From IMG/VR virus record IMGVR_UViG_2681813161_000005: 14,994 nt of DNA; one strand, 5' to 3'. The notes below the pieces were generated by a model. It was not told where the DNA came from and made no database searches. It was given only the letters and a program-made list of their open reading frames with translations. The position numbers and the translations under genes were made by a program. Positions 1,270 through 14,994 of the stretch are shown here, in pieces (positions within the stretch are counted from its first letter, which is position 1; the number at the start of each line of letters is the position of its first letter). Origin of the DNA: a virus (Duplodnaviria; Heunggongvirae; Uroviricota; Caudoviricetes).

Positions 1270-2667
1270 TTCGGTACCCGTTCTGAAAAACTGCGTCGTG
1301 AAGTTGAACAGGCTGAGGCCCTGCTGAAACAACGCGAACAGGACAGTGATCGTTACAGTGGGCGGGAAGACGATCCGCAGGTTCCCCGCCAGTTGCGACA
1401 GTCTCGTCATCGTCGCCCGTTACCGGAGCATCTGCCCCGCGAAATAAATCGCCTGGAGCCAGAAGAAAGCTGTTGCCCGGAGTGTGGCGGTGAGCTGGAT
1501 TATCTGGGGGAAGTCAGCGCAGAACAACTGGAACTGGTGAGCAGCGCTCTGAAAGTGATCCGCACAGAACGGGTAAAAAAAGCCTGTACAAAATGTGACT
1601 GCATCGTTGAAGCACCGGCACCATCCCGTCCGATAGAGCGTGGTATCGCGGGCCCGGGGTTACTTGCCCGCGTGTTAACGGGAAAATACTGCGAACACCT
1701 GCCACTGTATCGTCAGAGTGAAATTTTTGCCCGTCAGGGTGTCGAACTGAGCCGTGCATTACTCTCCAACTGGGTTGACGCGTGCTGCCAGTTAATGACG
1801 CCGCTGAATGATGCTCTGTACCGTTATGTAATGAACAGCCGCAAAGTTCACACTGATGACACACCAGTAAAAGTGCTGGCACCGGGCAGGAAGAAGGCGA
1901 AAACAGGATATATCTGGACGTATGTCCGGGATGACAGGAATGCCGGTTCGCCAGAGCCTCCGGCGGTCTGGTTCGCCTACTCACCGGACCATCAGGGTAA
2001 ACATCCGGAGCAGCACCTTAGTCCCTTCCGGGGTATCCTGCAGGCAGATGCGTTTAATGGTTACGATCGGCTGTTCAGTGCCGAACGAGAAGGCGGCGCG
2101 TTGACGGAAGCAGGATGCTGGGCTCATGCGCGGCGCAAAGTCCACGATGTATATATCAGTACCAAAAGCGCGACAGCGGAAGAAGCCCTGAAACTAATCG
2201 GTGAGCTGTACGCCATCGAGCACGAAATACGCGGGTTGCCGGTGTCTGAACGCCTGGCGGTCAGGCAAATGCAGAGTAAACCGCTACTGACTTCCCTGTA
2301 TAAGCTGATGCAGGAGAAAGAACACACGTTATCGAAAAAATGCCGTCTGAGAGATGCGTTCCGGTATATCAGGAAGCACTGGGTTGCGTTGTGCAACTTC
2401 AGTGATGATGGTCTGGCTGAGGCGGATAATAATGCCGCGGAAAGAGCGCTTCGTGCAGTCTGTCTCGGAAAGAAAAACTTTATGTTCTTCGGCAGCGATC
2501 ACGGTGGAGAGCGTGGTGCGCTACTGTACGGGCTGATCGGCACCTGCCGACTGAACGGTATCGATCCGGAAGCGTATCTGCGCTATATCCTGAGCGTACT
2601 GCCGGAATGGCCTTCCAACCGTGTTGACGAACTCCTGCCATGGAACGTAGCACTCACCAATAAATAA
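1270..2667 (+). CDS. tnpC: IS66-family transposase TnpC (ISEc8-like), N-terminally truncated by the IS629 copy-1 insertion
   Basis: Reading frame is open from the IS629 boundary (1269) to the stop at 2667. Contains the zinc-finger-like CPECGGEL motif and a long DDE transposase body typical of IS66 TnpC. The ORF-track start at 1393 is an internal TTG. Confidence 0.8.
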   Translation, partial: FGTRSEKLRREVEQAEALLKQREQDSDRYSGREDDPQVPRQLRQSRHRRPLPEHLPREINRLEPEESCCPECGGELDYLGEVSAEQLELVSSALKVIRTERVKKACTKCDCIVEAPAPSRPIERGIAGPGLLARVLTGKYCEHLPLYRQSEIFARQGVELSRALLSNWVDACCQLMTPLNDALYRYVMNSRKVHTDDTPVKVLAPGRKKAKTGYIWTYVRDDRNAGSPEPPAVWFAYSPDHQGKHPEQHLSPFRGILQADAFNGYDRLFSAEREGGALTEAGCWAHARRKVHDVYISTKSATAEEALKLIGELYAIEHEIRGLPVSERLAVRQMQSKPLLTSLYKLMQEKEHTLSKKCRLRDAFRYIRKHWVALCNFSDDGLAEADNNAAERALRAVCLGKKNFMFFGSDHGGERGALLYGLIGTCRLNGIDPEAYLRYILSVLPEWPSNRVDELLPWNVALTNK

Positions 2668-2697
2668 GCGTCAATACGGTGCTCCGTTGACGCTTAC
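2664..2697. repeat. Putative IS66-family terminal inverted repeat (right end), containing an internal 9-bp palindrome
   Basis: Sequence ATAAGCGTCAATACGGTGCTCCGTTGACGCTTAC lies directly after the tnpC stop. Its reverse complement starts GTAAGCG, as recalled for IS66-family termini. AAGCGTCAA and TTGACGCTT form an internal inverted repeat. Confidence 0.4.
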
Positions 2698-2782
2698 TAT
2701 CGTATTGATTGATCTGCATCAAATTAACGTAAAAGCAACTTCAGATAATACAAATCAGCAACACTGAATATGGGGAAACATT

Positions 2783-2983
2783 ATGTCATCAAAGAACAGA
2801 ACCCGCAGAACAACAACCCGCAACATCCGATTTCCAAACCAGATGATTGAACAAATTAACATCGCTCTTGATCTGAAAGGTTCAGGAAACTTTTCAGCGT
2901 GGGTTATTGAAGCCTGCAGGAGAAGGCTGGCAACAGATGCAACGCATCTGCGCCCGGCCAGCATGAAAAATAACGAGAAATGA
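2783..2983 (+). CDS. Ribbon-helix-helix (Arc/Mnt/CopG-like) small DNA-binding protein, 66 aa
   Basis: N-terminal basic stretch, then beta-strand-like RNIRFP followed by two helices (NQMIEQINIALDLKG / NFSAWVIEACRRRL), the same layout as Arc (FNLRWP) and Mnt (FNFRMP). GGGG(A) Shine-Dalgarno about 7 nt upstream of the ATG. Confidence 0.55.
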   Translation: MSSKNRTRRTTTRNIRFPNQMIEQINIALDLKGSGNFSAWVIEACRRRLATDATHLRPASMKNNEK

Positions 2984-3114
2984 ACGTTCGGTTACAGGAG
3001 CAGGTACCCACTGTCCTCCAACAATATTTCATCTTCATATCCGACGGAACAAGACTTACCCTGCCGGGATGTACAGAATAACAACAGAGTGATAATTAAT
3101 TTCTGATGAAATAA

Positions 3115-3447
3115 TCAGGGTGCAGAAGGACTAAAGATAAACGTTTTCTTCACGCCTTTACACGGCCTGTCCTTCTCAAATCGCCATTTTGCCATCGCCT
3201 TTACAACCTGCTCATCAAACAAATGGTGCGGCTCTGAACGGATAAACTCAATTCGGGTGACAGTACCATCAGCACCAATATCAAACTTCACATCAACCCG
3301 TCCCTTTATATAATTTGCCGCTGCATAGGCCGGATATTGTGGTAATGCCTTAACCAACTGTCGGGGCATATCTGTTTTATGTTGCGTACAGCCCATAACC
3401 AGAGAAGACAACAAAATAATTAACGGAAGGTTTCTTTTCATTTTCAT
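3115..3447 (-). CDS. Lipoprotein with a TonB C-terminal-domain-like sequence (alternative GTG start at 3456)
   Basis: Signal peptide MKMKRNLPLIILLSSLVMGC with a lipobox-like VMGC. Mature part PQYPAYAAANYIKGRVDVKFDIGADGTVTRIEFIRSEPHHLFDEQVVKAMAKWRFEKDRP matches the remembered E. coli TonB C-terminal domain pattern (PQYPARAQALRIEGQVKVKFDV..DGRV...PANMFEREVKNAMRRWRYEPGKP). It lacks TonB's N-terminal membrane anchor and Pro-rich spacer. Confidence 0.6.
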   Translation of the reverse strand: MKMKRNLPLIILLSSLVMGCTQHKTDMPRQLVKALPQYPAYAAANYIKGRVDVKFDIGADGTVTRIEFIRSEPHHLFDEQVVKAMAKWRFEKDRPCKGVKKTFIFSPSAP

Positions 3448-3461
3448 TCCCGGCACAGATA

Positions 3462-3478
3462 AGAATAAGTCTTATTCT
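3462..3478. promoter_or_regulatory. Perfect 17-bp palindrome (8-1-8) just upstream of the lipoprotein start; candidate operator
   Basis: AGAATAAG-T-CTTATTCT on the + strand, with arms that are exact reverse complements, 6-15 nt upstream of the candidate start codons of the 3115..3447 gene. Confidence 0.4.
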
Positions 3479-3785
3479 AACAATGCCACCCTGTCGGTCA
3501 TCAATCCTCTGCTTAATGGCAACGACAATTATCCGACTTAAATCACAAATCAGACACATGACATAACAGAGCTTGCGAGGTAACACATCGTCCGGTTTCT
3601 TCCACCATCGCACCGGACCAGCGACCATGAGGGGACAACGCCGCGCTCCGTTAACGCGGTAAACCCCGGTGTGTATCGTTTTTGATTATCCCCGCACACT
3701 CGCGCAGAGGAGTCTCCCGGTCGGGCTGCGGTCTCTGTTAATGCGGGGATACGGCGACAATACCGCGCATGGTTAATAAGGTCGC

Positions 3786-4010
3786 TCAACACACTGGCTG
3801 TAATGCAGCGGATACCATGCGGCATTTAGCGGCATTCATCGTACACTCAACGGTTAGCTCTTCATTCGTGGCATTCACCTGAAAGGTCCGGGAGTGTAAT
3901 TGCGTACATTTACCACTGAACGAACCTTCAACAAGAACACGACCACGCTGCAAAATACGGAACGGAATTGTTCCCTGAAAAGGCTTTACGGTTACCAGTA
4001 ATTTCTTCAT
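3786..4010 (-). CDS. Small Cys-containing hypothetical protein (74 aa), immediately downstream of Rz
   Basis: ATG at 4008..4010 with GGAG 5 nt upstream; begins 23 nt after the Rz stop on the same strand. Five Cys, no signal peptide. No family recognised. Confidence 0.45.
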   Translation of the reverse strand: MKKLLVTVKPFQGTIPFRILQRGRVLVEGSFSGKCTQLHSRTFQVNATNEELTVECTMNAAKCRMVSAALQPVC

Positions 4011-4033
4011 GCATTCTCCGGATAACAAAAATA

Positions 4034-4432
4034 CTAGTTAATACACTGAGTGCGGATATATTCCTGCGCCCCTTCCAGTTGCTTCTGCATTGTCATCAAC
4101 CGCTCTCTGAGGGTGAAATAATCCCGTTCAGCGGTGTCTGCCAGTCGGGGGCCGGTTGCATTATCCATTCCGGAGGTGCCGGTGGCTTCACGCACGGTAC
4201 CGGAGCAGGTGGCGTTGATCCGCAGGCGCTTACGACCAGCGGCAACATCACGCTGGCGCTGCTGCATGTCAGTAATGGTTGCGTTTGCCAGCTCCAGCTC
4301 TCTGGCTTTTTTATCGCGCTGCGCTTTGTAGGTGATGGCGTTATCACGGTAATGGTCTGTTGCCAGCCACAGCGCACCACAGACCACCAGCAGAATAACG
4401 GTAAACGCGGAAAGCATTCGGTTTATGTTCAC
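4034..4432 (-). CDS. Rz: Rz i-spanin (lambda Rz homolog)
   Basis: HYRDNAITYKAQRDK...RLADTAERDYFTLRERLMTMQKQLEG matches lambda Rz closely; N-terminal TM segment. Lacks an internal segment (about 24 aa, from memory) relative to lambda Rz. Start is GTG at 4432 or ATG at 4417. Confidence 0.85.
   Translation of the reverse strand: MNINRMLSAFTVILLVVCGALWLATDHYRDNAITYKAQRDKKARELELANATITDMQQRQRDVAAGRKRLRINATCSGTVREATGTSGMDNATGPRLADTAERDYFTLRERLMTMQKQLEGAQEYIRTQCIN
4096..4248 (-). CDS. Rz1: Rz1 o-spanin lipoprotein embedded in the +1 frame of Rz
   Basis: MLPLVVSACGSTPPAPVPCVKPPAPPEWIMQPAPDWQTPLNGIISPSESG matches lambda Rz1 (..MLPLVVVGC..CVKPPPPPAWIMQPPPDWQTPLNGIISPSERG). Lies entirely inside Rz. The true start may be upstream or non-AUG, because the signal peptide is short. 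Confidence 0.75.
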   Translation of the reverse strand: MLPLVVSACGSTPPAPVPCVKPPAPPEWIMQPAPDWQTPLNGIISPSESG

Positions 4433-4912: not shown

Positions 4913-5446
4913 TTATCTGTCGATGTCCCAGCACGCCAGCGCACTTTCCTGGTCTCGCCGGGATACCTGACCGTAGCAATTATTTGAGCGGATACGGCAG
5001 TCTCTGCCACCGTCCTTAATCCACCAGCGAATCGCTTCGCATGCTCCCCTGCGGTCACCAGCATTAATCCGTCTGTAAAACGTCGACGGGAAACACTTAC
5101 CGGGGCCAATGTTATAGGGACAAAATGACGCGATACCCGCTTTCTGGGGTTCGGTCAGCGGCACTTTAATATTGCGCTCCACCCATGCCAGCGCCTTATC
5201 ACGCTCAATGGCGTTGACCTGGTCGCATTTTTCCTTCGACAACTTCATGCCCGGGACGACAGGTTTACTATCCACCAGGATGGCACCGCGGCAGATGGTC
5301 CAGATACCCGCGCCATCACGGTATGCCGTGGTGTGGTTACCTTCCTTTTCATCCAGAAACTGGTCGAGGATTTCAGGCGCAGGCGCACCTGCGGCAATCA
5401 GCGCCAGAACGGCAGCCGACAGGCCGTATTTGATTTTGGTGTTCAT
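4913..5446 (-). CDS. R: Phage lysozyme-type endolysin with N-terminal SAR (signal-anchor-release) segment, 177 aa
   Basis: N-terminal weakly hydrophobic Gly/Ala-rich TM (YGLSAAVLALIAAGAPA) followed by a lysozyme-like domain, resembling the phage 21 R21 layout. Lies in a lysis cassette with a pinholin. Confidence 0.85.
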   Translation of the reverse strand: MNTKIKYGLSAAVLALIAAGAPAPEILDQFLDEKEGNHTTAYRDGAGIWTICRGAILVDSKPVVPGMKLSKEKCDQVNAIERDKALAWVERNIKVPLTEPQKAGIASFCPYNIGPGKCFPSTFYRRINAGDRRGACEAIRWWIKDGGRDCRIRSNNCYGQVSRRDQESALACWDIDR

Positions 5447-5646: not shown

Positions 5647-5700
5647 TGAACCGCCCCGGGAATCCTGGAGACTAAACTCCCTGAGAAAGAGGTAAACAGG

Positions 5701-6026
5701 ATGACTAAAAATACTCGTTTTTCCCCGAAGTCCGTCAGAGGGCGATTCGTATGGTTCTGGAAAGTCAGGGCGAATATGACTCACAGTGGGCGGCAATTTG
5801 TTCCATTGCCCCAAAGATTGGCTGTACACCGGAGACTCTGCGTGTCTGGGTACGCCAGCATGAGCGGGATACCGGAGGCGGTGATGGCGGGCTCACCACC
5901 GCTGAACGTCAGCGTCTGAAAGAGCTGGAACGTGAAAATCGTGAACTGCGCCGCAGTAACGATATCCTTCGCCAGGCTTCCGCTTATTTTGCGAAGGCGG
6001 AGTTCGACCGCCTCTGGAAAAAGTGA
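5701..6026 (+). pseudogene. IS629 orfA with a -1 frameshift in a homopolymer (HTH N-terminus lost; internal restart possible at 5751)
   Basis: [15 protein letters not shown]... diverges from copy 1 ([18 protein letters not shown]) after codon 9 because of the one-base-shorter C-run. The downstream frame [10 protein letters not shown]... is identical to copy 1. Confidence 0.8.
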
Positions 6027-6913
6027 TGCCACTGCTGGATAAGCTGCGTAAGCTGTACGGGGTCGGACCGGTATGCAGTGAACTACATATTGCCCCGTCA
6101 ACGTATTACCACTGTCAGCAACAGCGACATCATCCTGATAAACGCAGTGCCCGTGCGCAGCGCGATGACTGGCTGAAGAAAGAGATACTGCGCGTATACG
6201 ATGGGAATCATCAGGTATACGGTGTGCGTAAAGTCTGGCGTCAGTTGTTACGGGAAGGTATCAGAGTGGCCAGATGCACTGTGGCACGTCTCATGGCGGT
6301 TATGGGACTTGCCGGTGTTCTCCGGGGTAAAAAGGTCCGTACGACCATCAGCCGGAAAGCCGTTGCCGCAGGCGACCGCGTAAACCGTCAGTTCGTGGCA
6401 GAACGACCTGACCAGCTGTGGGTGGCTGATTTTACTTACGTCAGCACATGGCAGGGCTTCGTCTATGTGGCGTTCATTATTGATGTGTTTGCCGGATACA
6501 TCGTGGGGTGGCGGGTCTCATCGTCCATGGAAACGACATTCGTGCTGGATGCTCTGGAGCAGGCGTTATGGGCCCGTCGACCGTCCGGCACGGTCCATCA
6601 CAGTGATAAAGGTTCTCAGTATGTATCGCTGGCCTACACACAGCGGCTTAAGGAAGCCGGATTACTGGCATCAACAGGAAGTACAGGCGACTCGTATGAC
6701 AACGCGATGGCGGAGAGCATCAATGGTCTTTACAAAGCGGAGGTAATACACCGTAAGAGCTGGAAAAACCGTGCAGAAGTGGAACTGGCCACACTCACGT
6801 GGGTGGACTGGTATAATAATCGACGATTGCTGGAAAGGCTGGGCCACATCCCTCCGGCAGAAGCAGAAAAAGCTTATTATGCTTCCATCGGAAACGATGA
6901 TCTGGCAGCCTGA
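6023..6913 (+). CDS. IS3-family transposase OrfB (DDE), 296 aa
   Basis: Protein identical to the orfB products of copies 1 and 3. Confidence 0.9.
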
Positions 6914-6955
6914 GTTCACAGATAAAACACTCTCCAGGAAACCCGGGGCGGTTCA

Positions 6956-13919: not shown

Positions 13920-14994
13920 CGTAGCCGGTCTTTACGAAAAGTTTGATCGCAGAACTGGCAGAGTTTACTACCAGTATAAAAATCCTGTGACTGGAAAATT
14001 TCACGGACTCGGAACAGACAAAGGTAAGGCAGAAAAAATCGCTTCCACAGCCAATCAGCGAATAGCTGCAGCAGAAGCTGAATATTTCATGCGCAAAATT
14101 GATGAAAGTCCGTCAGCAACAAAACGTCGGGGTATCAGATTAAAGGCATGGGTTGATCGATATCTGAAAATACAGGACACGCGACTGAAAAATGGAGATA
14201 TTGCAGCTACAACTCACAAAGAAAAAACTCGAATGGCTGCATACCTGGTTTCCCGTCTGGGAAACCACCCATTGAAAGAACTGGAAGTAAGAGACTTTGC
14301 ATTAATACTGGATGAGTGGCTGGATAAAGACATGGTCAGCACAGCGAGAGTAAATCGTGGATTATGGGTTGATATTTATAAAGAAGCACAGCATGCAGGG
14401 GAAGTTCCTCCTGGATGGAATCCTCCGGAGGCTACCCGTAAACCGATCCCTAAAGTAACCAGAGCCAGGCTCACCATGGAAGACTGGCAAAAAATTTACA
14501 ATGCAACGCCTGAAAAACACTTTATCCGTAACGCAATGCTTCTTGCGATTGTTACTGGTCAGCGCCGTGATGACATTTGCCACATGCGTTTTTCAGATGT
14601 GTGGAACGAACACTTGCATATCACCCAGGGAAAAACCGGAATGCGTCTGGCGTTACCGCTTACACTACGCTGTGATGCCATTGGGATAACGTTAAAAGAA
14701 GTTATTGATGGGTGCCGAGACAGAATATTAAGTCCATATCTAATCCATAGTCGGCACCAGAAACAACCGAAGCCGATGAGTAAAGACAACCTGAGCGACT
14801 ACTTTGCCAAAGCACGGGATCTGGCTGGGATAATTCCACCAGCAGGAAAAACTCCGCCAACATTTCATGAACAACGCTCTCTATCAGAACGGCTGTACCG
14901 TGCACAGGGTATCGATACAAAAACATTACTAGGACATAAAGTCCAGGCAACCACCGATCGCTATAACGATACTCGAGGTCAGGAATGGGTTTAA
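13888..14994 (+). CDS. int: Tyrosine recombinase / phage integrase (lambda Int family), 368 aa
   Basis: Lambda-Int-like C-terminus with the catalytic Tyr context (LLGHK...TDRYNDTRGQEW). Overlaps xis. The stop is at the window edge, so the att site should lie just beyond 14994. Confidence 0.85.
   Translation: MSPRPRKNSTDVAGLYEKFDRRTGRVYYQYKNPVTGKFHGLGTDKGKAEKIASTANQRIAAAEAEYFMRKIDESPSATKRRGIRLKAWVDRYLKIQDTRLKNGDIAATTHKEKTRMAAYLVSRLGNHPLKELEVRDFALILDEWLDKDMVSTARVNRGLWVDIYKEAQHAGEVPPGWNPPEATRKPIPKVTRARLTMEDWQKIYNATPEKHFIRNAMLLAIVTGQRRDDICHMRFSDVWNEHLHITQGKTGMRLALPLTLRCDAIGITLKEVIDGCRDRILSPYLIHSRHQKQPKPMSKDNLSDYFAKARDLAGIIPPAGKTPPTFHEQRSLSERLYRAQGIDTKTLLGHKVQATTDRYNDTRGQEWV

Follow-up and report, generated by a model that had tools for sequence, protein, structure and literature searches.

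A mosaic cargo block of lambdoid prophages encodes a predicted TonB-like lipoprotein and contains a candidate structured RNA

INTRODUCTION

We describe here a block of three small genes (positions 2698-4030) in a stretch of viral DNA of 14,994 nucleotides (nt), the IMG/VR record IMGVR_UViG_2681813161_000005, referred to below, at its full length, as 'the window'. The window is a damaged lambdoid prophage, and the block is an ordinary lambdoid cargo slot between the lysis genes and cos/terminase. The first of its genes, which we call TonBL, encodes a predicted outer-membrane lipoprotein that consists of a signal peptide, a short tether and the C-terminal domain (CTD) of TonB. The second, ylcI, encodes a member of the YlcI/YnfO family, and the third, hyp74, a small protein with four cysteines. 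Between hyp74 and TonBL lies a conserved non-coding element that is a candidate structured RNA. All three open reading frames (ORFs) are intact and under purifying selection, and the block is put together, mosaic-like, from at least four independently assorting pieces. An earlier note on the window, made from its letters, had singled out the block as an AT-rich moron and as a likely site for an uncharacterized host-interaction or exclusion function. That function would be the most reasonable one for TonBL, which we propose may act as a decoy of TonB. The gene anatomy taken by itself we consider very probably correct; the anatomy and the decoy mechanism taken together we hold at a probability of about 0.5. 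The sequence is not new, because all three genes are already annotated in public records, as 'TonB family protein', 'YlcI/YnfO family protein' and 'hypothetical protein', without a described function.

THE BLOCK AND ITS GENOMIC SLOT

The features of the block are as follows.

2700-2782, plus strand: ylcI upstream region, GC content 0.33, presumed promoter; conserved in the K-12 prophage DLP12 and in lambda
2783-2983, plus strand, opposite to the late genes: ylcI, YlcI/YnfO-family gene (DUF3950), 66 amino acids (aa); Pfam PF13132, E=4.8e-19, and NCBIfam NF041551
2984-3114, no strand: spacer of 131 bp between the convergent genes ylcI and TonBL; fixed length in 77/77 loci of the window type
3115-3441, minus strand: TonBL, 108-aa predicted outer-membrane lipoprotein; Pfam TonB_C, E=1.4e-14
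3442-3589, minus strand: TonBL-specific upstream region with a sigma-70-like promoter candidate from a promoter scan
3590-3771, listed on the minus strand: GC-rich (0.61) non-coding element, 182 nt, with three hairpin domains, a candidate structured RNA; conserved in phages and genomes, with conserved pairing
3786-4010, minus strand: hyp74, 74 aa, four cysteines; conserved family (PHROG 2571)

The three small genes had been placed downstream of the spanin genes Rz and Rz1, and they do lie at the stated coordinates, behind Rz/Rz1 (4034-4432, minus strand). Pairwise comparison with diverged homologues gives ratios of nonsynonymous to synonymous substitution (dN/dS) of 0.14 for TonBL, 0.32 for hyp74 and 0.16-0.26 for YlcI. 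Because they belong to conserved families and show such ratios, the ORFs are real genes rather than chance ORFs or gene fragments; none is a degraded piece of a phage structural gene. The block is 99.9% identical to the corresponding DNA of Escherichia coli strain CB6837, with homology beginning exactly at position 2698, and several IMG/VR contigs (e.g. L021, L026 and L030) encode proteins 100% identical to those of the block. The exact arrangement of the window occurs in no complete E. coli genome of the collection. In base composition the block is uneven. GC content is 0.42 over 2700-3589 and 0.46 in hyp74, compared with 0.55 in Rz, the lysozyme gene and the insertion sequence (IS), so that these parts are indeed AT-richer, as the earlier note had it; the element at 3590-3771, inside the block, is not.

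That note had also supposed that terminase genes normally come after Rz and that the block takes their place. In intact relatives the same block stands between Rz and the small terminase gene: the order is Rz, hyp74, the gap, TonBL, ylcI on the opposite strand, sometimes an HNH endonuclease gene, and then the small and large terminase genes. In CB6837, too, terminase follows the block. The absence of terminase from the window is due to an IS66-family element that abuts position 2699 and has itself been cut by an IS3-family element; the block is not its cause. The same slot holds bor in lambda, phage 21 and 933W-type phages, and the cargo of lambda in this slot amounts to about 2 kb. Searches of Pfam, PHROG and NCBIfam gave no Bor-family match for any of the three ORFs, in keeping with what had been supposed of them. 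Their 'accessory character' stands in so far as the block is cargo adjoining the lysis cassette; it does not stand for YlcI, which is a highly conserved lambdoid gene, intact in lambda near cos.

The earlier note suggested a comparison of synteny to see whether the block travels as a unit, and it does not. At a coverage of at least 80%, phage records share with the window either positions 2783-3767 (YlcI, TonBL and the upstream region of TonBL) or positions 3590-4030 (hyp74 and the sequence that follows it), but never both. Of 80 IMG/VR loci chosen for their window-type TonBL gene, 77 have a contig that reaches far enough to show YlcI, and in every one of these it follows at identical spacing, whereas hyp74 is present in only 30 of the 80. 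TonBL genes of the phage 21 type have no adjoining YlcI, and other phages, without TonBL, carry hyp74 together with YlcI, or hyp74 alone. The four pieces would be hyp74, the element of about 180 nt, the TonBL moron and YlcI.

TonBL: A TonB-LIKE DOMAIN WITH A LIPOPROTEIN SIGNAL PEPTIDE

TonBL was recognized in the earlier note as a lipoprotein with a TonB C-terminal domain, and the profile searches agree. It scores 54.7 bits against PF03544 (cut-off 24.6) and 54.6 bits against TIGR01352 (cut-off 27.1), which makes it a member of the TonB_C family. Its residues 26-104 can be aligned, with no gap, to chains 1u07 and 8rd6 of the E. coli TonB CTD (chain residues 4-82; E about 5e-16), and the matched structures include the complexes with FhuA (2grx) and BtuB (2gsk). 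With the E. coli CTD (residues ~150-239) TonBL shares the core and the beta3 strand. The YP motif and the aromatic cluster are likewise retained, and the invariant or near-invariant positions of the TonBL family correspond to TonB Y163, P164, G174, G186, P198, F202, W213, P220 and F230. TonBL differs from TonB in that it is phage-borne, has a lipoprotein signal peptide, and is without the transmembrane anchor, the proline-rich spacer and the last beta strand. Lacking both a transmembrane helix and a proline-rich spacer, it does not qualify as a full-length TonB; the NCBIfam equivalog models for TonB give it 49-74 bits, through its C-terminal part only, against cut-offs of 265-448.

The N-terminus is a lipoprotein signal peptide with the lipobox LVMG/C and Thr at position +2 (window type: MKRNLPLIILLSSLVMG/C-T), and seven residues (TQHKTDM) form a tether between Cys18 and the region of CTD homology. 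Lipobox and +2 residue were read by eye against a PROSITE-type rule, [LVI..][..][AGS]C with a residue other than Asp at +2, and TonBL conforms to it. The phage 21 type has LAVG/C-S; among relatives the lipobox reads LMGC, ISAC, LLGC or LSAC, and the +2 residue is Ser or Ala. Both features are kept in the two E. coli subfamilies and in most of the aligned relatives of 35-49% identity, but not in P0298 and P0324. By the Lol sorting rule, lipoproteins with a residue other than Asp at +2 are delivered to the outer membrane's inner leaflet, and because its own +2 residue is Thr, TonBL is predicted to reside there.

A word-index search returned mostly E. coli sequences, in two subfamilies of 98% and about 70% identity. 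An exhaustive search of Salmonella, Klebsiella, Gibbsiella, Rahnella, Erwinia and Pantoea sequences, among others, is not what this was; it simply added further relatives from these genera, of about 110 aa and 35-49% identity, most of which have lipoboxes and all of which bear no other name than 'TonB family protein'. TonBL is present in 1616 of 5426 complete E. coli genomes (~30%), some 414 of them with the window type and about 1200 with the phage 21 type. In phage 21 itself it is CPT_21_73, annotated 'TonB C-terminal domain protein', and it occurs also in ev017, Perceval, JLK-2012, Stx1a phages and a Klebsiella phage. A scan of genome contigs yielded a single contig with TonBL, of 418 bp, which is probably a contaminant.

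Morons, as reportedly defined by Juhala et al. in 2000, are genes with a promoter and terminator of their own, inserted in a phage operon and deviant in base composition. The composition of TonBL, GC 0.41-0.44 against 0.55 in the flanks, is that of a moron. The promoter candidate upstream of it (3501-3474) consists of ATGACC, 16 nt, and TG-n-TAGAAT, and its extended -10 element, 'TGTnAGAATAAGAC', is kept in the 70%-identical module of the phage 21 type. As to the other side of the gene, one contig of the phage 21 type (locus L211 888-1379, minus strand) has, where the window type has YlcI, a predicted 163-aa ORF with a signal peptide on the opposite strand; the phage 21 record has two small ORFs annotated on the other strand in that spacer.

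A POSSIBLE DECOY OF TonB

We propose that the TonBL moron, read from its own extended -10 promoter, would place a TonB CTD in the outer membrane on a seven-residue tether, and that the beta3 strand of this domain would pair, as that of TonB does, with the TonB boxes of FhuA, FepA, Cir, BtuB and other transporters. Because TonBL has neither a membrane anchor nor coupling to ExbB/ExbD, it could not energize these transporters and so would compete with TonB, in a dominant-negative manner, by occupying TonB boxes unproductively. Howard et al. are said to have found in 2001 that periplasmic C-terminal fragments of TonB inhibit transport by FhuA and FecA in just this dominant-negative way. The competition that we envisage for TonBL is the same; those laboratory fragments, however, are artificial and soluble, whereas TonBL is natural, phage-carried, predicted to be lipid-anchored and about 45% identical.

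Phages are known to disable a TonB-dependent transporter from the periplasmic side by means of outer-membrane lipoproteins, namely Llp of T5 and the Cor proteins of the phi80, HK022 and N15 type. Like TonBL as proposed here, these are small, lie at the inner leaflet of the outer membrane and inactivate a transporter (FhuA). The likeness is one of functional logic only, for the fold and family of TonBL are unrelated to theirs. The action of Llp is allosteric and directed at one receptor, whereas that of TonBL would be through the universal TonB-box interface, and Cor genes lie in the tail region whereas TonBL lies near cos. If the decoy mechanism holds, TonBL would represent a new variant of the phage lipoproteins that target TonB-dependent transporters. 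Structures show the TonB box paired with beta3, and irreversible adsorption of T1 requires TonB and energy (PMC11658791). The expected outcome would be exclusion of TonB-dependent phages (of the T1 and phi80 types), of group B colicins and of siderophore-microcins, at the cost of some uptake of iron and vitamin B12.

Several points count against this proposal. Where TonB has R166, which we take to be a FhuA contact in the 2GRX complex, TonBL has Tyr; and at the equivalent of Q160, the classic suppressor site for TonB-box mutations, it has Gln in the window type and Arg in the phage 21 type, with no conservation in the wider family. The number of sites found in the promoter scan is not above chance, and the terminator scan found none for TonBL, the spacer at 2984-3114 containing no convincing intrinsic terminator. 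PADLOC defence profiles gave no significant match in the block, only one at chance level (E=0.022). A literature search on prophage TonB-like proteins and on the TonB of phage 21 found no functional study of TonBL. Finally, a general TonB decoy should starve the lysogen of iron, which is hard to square with carriage by 30% of genomes, although this objection is eased if expression is low, conditional or limited to the lytic cycle.

The last difficulty would be avoided by receptor-specific exclusion of the Llp/Cor type, in which TonBL would lock allosterically one transporter (e.g. FhuA), that used by its own phage or by relatives. Llp and Cor, as small outer-membrane lipoproteins of phages, do exactly this, and the two well-separated E. 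coli subfamilies and the genus-specific relatives could reflect co-evolution with receptors. Yet the fold of TonBL differs from theirs, and its only matches in Pfam, PHROG and NCBIfam are of the TonB type, so that it belongs to neither the Llp nor the Cor family. It keeps, moreover, the generic core that binds TonB boxes, with no diversified surface, and its gene combines freely with differing tail and terminase modules from phage to phage. We regard this alternative as unlikely. We give still less weight to a role in lysogenic conversion unrelated to exclusion, under which TonBL would be an envelope factor in the manner of Bor, concerned with serum resistance, with tethering of peptidoglycan and outer membrane, or with iron signalling through FecA-type transducers. 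Bor of lambda is an outer-membrane lipoprotein, as TonBL is predicted to be, encoded in the slot after Rz by AT-richer cargo with its own expression signals; bor holds this position in lambda, phage 21 and 933W, in phage 21 the two genes occur together, and TonBL is common in clinical genomes and in those of Shiga toxin-producing E. coli (STEC). But they are not homologous and share no fold, bor is read in the opposite direction to the late genes, with which TonBL shares its strand, and nothing ties TonBL to serum resistance, the phenotype of Bor; the conserved residues of TonBL are, instead, those of the core of the TonB-transporter interface.

Two other explanations extend to the rest of the block. 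TonBL or hyp74, or both, might be accessory lysis proteins, for example an additional spanin-like component of the outer membrane. The two genes stand on the late strand immediately behind Rz/Rz1, translation of hyp74 appears to be linked to that of Rz, and phrog_1267, which TonBL matches at 7.7e-43, bears the label 'Rz-like spanin'. TonBL is neither an i-spanin nor an o-spanin, however: Rz and Rz1 are separate genes (4034-4432), a complete pair of them precedes both genes in relatives, and TonBL is a globular TonB_C domain rather than a proline-rich o-spanin. Either gene can be dispensed with, many lambdoid phages lacking one or both, and the label, which a spurious ORF overlying the non-coding element also bears, looks like annotation spill-over. 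A lysis function thus appears very improbable. That the block is merely functionless, decaying junk of a dead prophage is hardly credible at all, for although the prophage around it is heavily damaged (three IS3-family copies, an IS66 fragment, an IS1, a truncated esterase gene and methylase gene, and a spanin deletion), the three ORFs are intact, are 100% identical in other assemblies and in functional phages, and belong to families under purifying selection. Our preference remains with TonBL as a decoy of TonB. The more far-reaching proposition, that TonBL is a natural decoy for TonB-dependent transporters in general that makes the lysogen tolerant, and that the adjacent 180-nt element is an undescribed functional RNA of the lambdoid late region, is tentative, and we would sooner expect some part of it to fail than all of it to hold.

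A CONSERVED NON-CODING ELEMENT

Between hyp74 and TonBL is an unannotated gap of 330 bp (3442-3785) that the earlier note overlooked, together with the element inside it. The element is sharply bounded, starting on the minus strand with ATGCGCGGTATTGTCGCC and ending with GGTGGAAGAAACCGGA. It occurs once in the window, in 398 phage records, and in 4154 of the 5426 complete E. coli genomes (~77%), where it is found at 11163 places, with up to 11 in one genome; under the matches listed there is no annotation. With nhmmer it can be located in lambda at 46868-47033 (locus L214 1469-1634), between bor and lambdap78; in DLP12 of K-12 at 579009-579175 (locus L209 3510-3676), between borD and ybcV; in phage 21 (locus L213 2656-2819); and in a 933W-type phage. 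BLAST missed the copies in DLP12 and reference lambda, both of which the profile hidden Markov model detected. Rfam has no match to the element at gathering score, none that is relevant at E<=5 over positions 2650-4100, and none at the copy in E. coli O157 strain Sakai.

We consider the element a candidate structured RNA. Across 40 non-redundant copies, an eight-helix structure has 97.1% of its cells paired, compared with 37-62% when the partners are slid. Changes on both sides occur at five pairs, a count that was reached by none of 500 shuffles. Lambda and DLP12 have a swap from C-G to G-C in helix 1. Twenty pairs vary between Watson-Crick and G.U, and only six between Watson-Crick and A.C, an asymmetry that favours an RNA of the late-gene strand. 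Lying after the last gene of the lysis cassette in most lambdoid phages, lambda included, the element would most likely be an RNA within the late transcript or antisense to it, with a role in, for example, processing, stability or regulation.

An RNA is not what every test points to. The minimum free energy (MFE) of single sequences is no better than that of shuffled ones (z of -0.2 and -1.3), the covariation term from RNAalifold is small, and the copies compared are closely related. The helices, moreover, were chosen on the sense strand, and in six divergent copies it is the antisense strand that folds slightly better. With an MFE so unexceptional and an inference of strand that is not robust, the main rival is a feature of the DNA: a 'boundary sequence' that promotes homologous exchange of modules, a binding site for protein or a single-stranded DNA site, or else a remnant of the region upstream of bor. 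The element is situated exactly at the mosaic junctions, since one module ends at 3767 and the other starts at 3590, and in phages that carry bor it lies 165-180 nt upstream of that gene and on its strand. Against this, its variation is strongly biased to changes that preserve pairing, there is the swap in helix 1, and phages without bor retain the element, its edges still sharp. A DNA-level role is accordingly a serious possibility, though we think it doubtful, and a structured RNA is the reading we carry forward.

Other identities for the element were considered and rejected. The gap does not code for protein: no frame is conserved, and stop codons and frame changes occur among the copies. 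The ORF at 3550-3825 matches phrog_6954, and both RefSeq and CPT records annotate ORFs in the gap. For one of these, beginning 'MVEETG..', about 20% of copies have no start codon and the length ranges from 5 to 53 aa; in phage 21 this unconserved ORF is CPT_21_72 (locus L213 2801-2938). The ORF over the element that is labelled 'Rz-like spanin' is VT2phi_272, YP_009187371.1 (locus L088 2443-2688). The prophage small RNAs (sRNAs) of enterohaemorrhagic E. coli (AgvB, AsxR, STnc100, Pas and EcOnc) resemble the element in being non-coding and at conserved positions of lambdoid prophages. They lie elsewhere, however, at the moron site of pR' or next to the holin gene, and the element, which is different in sequence and without an Rfam family, is not AgvB, AsxR, Pas or STnc100. 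EcOnc10-12 are only 22-80 nt from the element in Sakai, but they represent the 3' untranslated region (3'UTR) of a YlcI-family gene, and a location of EcOnc11 inside the element is ruled out by coordinates calibrated on AgvB, which place it in that 3'UTR and terminator. A literature search on an RNA between borD and ybcV found nothing relevant.

YlcI, A CONSERVED LAMBDOID GENE

YlcI is among the most conserved small genes of lambdoid phages. The window protein belongs to the family by its scores against PF13132 (68.4 bits; cut-off 25) and NF041551 (35.5 bits; cut-off 30). Its known relatives are YlcI (DLP12) and YnfO (Qin) of K-12; aligned homologues are 69-98% identical, and only the C-terminal tail varies, residues 1-50 being almost invariant across 866 protein clusters. 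The gene has the same position and orientation in DLP12, next to nohD/terminase, and window positions 2698-2928 are 88% identical to ylcI of DLP12 and the 85 bp upstream of it. Upstream region and gene are 89% identical to lambda 48169-48388, and lambda (NC_001416) contains an intact but unannotated YlcI ORF of 64 aa, identical to the K-12 protein, at 48109-48303 on the complementary strand (locus L214 2710-2904, minus strand), about 200 bp from cos.

YlcI is probably a small DNA-binding protein. The earlier note called it a ribbon-helix-helix (RHH) protein, and its pattern (a basic N-terminus, 'NIRFP', then two helices) resembles that of Arc, Mnt, CopG and ParD, so that an RHH-like fold may be suspected; the AlphaFold 2 model has helices at 19-32 and 34-55, with a predicted local distance difference test (pLDDT) score of 69. 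None of our comparisons is significant, though, and the assignment was not demonstrated by any of them. A profile search of the Protein Data Bank found no match for YlcI. Aligned with hhalign, it is in register with Arc ('NIRFP' on 'NLRWP') at a probability of only 2.4%, and with CopG there is nothing; the best Foldseek matches of the pLDDT-69 model are a TCP domain and ParD2, at E>3. YlcI also matches phrog_497 (HicB-like) at E=0.007.

YlcI would be read from a promoter of its own, opposite to the late genes, and be expressed in lysogens. A scan of 2700-2782 for consensus promoters found none. In uninduced O157 Sakai, Tree et al. (2014) mapped Hfq by cross-linking and analysis of cDNA (CRAC) and obtained the orphan peaks EcOnc10, EcOnc11 and EcOnc12. 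Their coordinates are shifted by 137-146 nt with respect to NC_002695.2, as calibrated on the Rfam position of AgvB. Once corrected, the three peaks belong to ECs_1967, a YlcI-family gene of Sakai prophage Sp10, where they fall in the 3'UTR and the intrinsic terminator (locus L210 ~6457-6514, minus strand). This suggests an abundant Hfq-bound 3'UTR RNA of a YlcI-family gene in uninduced lysogens and lends indirect support to expression in that state. A literature search on YlcI, YnfO and DUF3950 found nothing relevant.

hyp74, A GENE OF THE LATE OPERON

The small Cys-containing protein predicted in the earlier note is hyp74, 74 aa with four cysteines as listed above, but it is not a self-contained part of a moron. 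It starts 23 nt past the Rz stop codon, behind a GGAG, and in relatives overlaps that stop codon; because of this proximity and the GGAG site, hyp74 is a late-operon gene. Without a promoter, and set tightly behind Rz, it lacks the marks of a moron. Homologues in E. coli and Salmonella are 56-100% identical and mostly 74 aa long, with C35 invariant and C56 nearly so. Pfam and NCBIfam have no match to it. AlphaFold predicts a confident all-beta sandwich (pLDDT 90), for which fold searches return only generic beta-sandwich matches. We envisage a small cytoplasmic protein with a beta-sandwich fold that is produced, together with Rz, from the late transcript. The match to PHROG 2571 covers positions 100-172 of a 291-column profile, and hyp74 was accordingly considered as a fragment of a larger gene; this was ruled out, as most full-length homologues are of 74 aa.

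THE SURROUNDING PROPHAGE

The late genes of the lambdoid prophage are on the minus strand. The features that bear on the block are these.

1273-2699, plus strand: IS66-family fragment with a 424-aa transposase ORF at 1393-2667; Pfam DDE_Tnp_IS66, E=2.6e-96
4034-4432, minus strand: Rz (i-spanin) with embedded Rz1; Pfam Phage_lysis and Rz1
4913-5446, minus strand: lysozyme gene of the late region
7158-7427, minus strand: holin gene of the late region

The IS66-family fragment ends on its right against the block, at 2699, and so takes up the side on which intact relatives have cos and terminase; an IS3-family copy (1-1272) interrupts its left part. A repeat map shows three such copies, 100% identical, at 1-1272, 5647-6955 and 8395-9703, each of them with an ALIL frameshift pseudoknot; an IS1 is present at ~12931-13628. 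The SASA esterase and DNA methylase genes are both truncated, and an integrase gene (13888-14994) adjoins truncated genes of the late region. Aligned with a 157-aa relative (locus L010), Rz has a 75-bp in-frame deletion between short direct repeats, with loss of Rz residues 65-89. In the embedded frame the same deletion removes the start codon of Rz1 and the charged n-region of its signal peptide, and the spanin pair of the window is probably defective.

Upstream of the truncated SASA esterase gene, the usual pR' moron site, the window contains an STnc100 sRNA (139 bits; 11341-11531, minus strand) and three tRNA genes (Arg-tct, Arg-tcg and Met-cat; 11608-11857, minus strand). In the CB6837 prophage the pR' moron site holds a 142-aa gene annotated 'cell envelope integrity protein TolA' (locus L001 15557-15985, minus strand), which may be a second case of a phage-borne fragment of a host trans-envelope energy-coupling protein.

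IMPLICATIONS

Two public labels are misleading and can be corrected: 'Rz-like spanin', as applied to the PHROG of TonBL (1267) and to that of the spurious ORF over the element (6954). Reference lambda still contains, near cos, an intact, conserved and unannotated gene, YlcI, and the 180-nt element may be a regulatory or processing RNA that has been missed in the best-studied family of phages. Several phages enter through TonB-dependent transporters, as do group B colicins, siderophore-microcins and siderophore-conjugated antibiotics. If our proposal is correct, TonBL would tune or block these gates in about 30% of complete E. coli genomes, those of STEC and sequence type 131 (ST131) included, and would have an effect on host range in phage therapy, on bacteriocin competition in the gut and on iron acquisition. 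A decoy for all such transporters would constitute a new class of superinfection or bacteriocin exclusion, one that would operate, through the relatives of TonBL, also in Salmonella, Klebsiella and other Enterobacterales.

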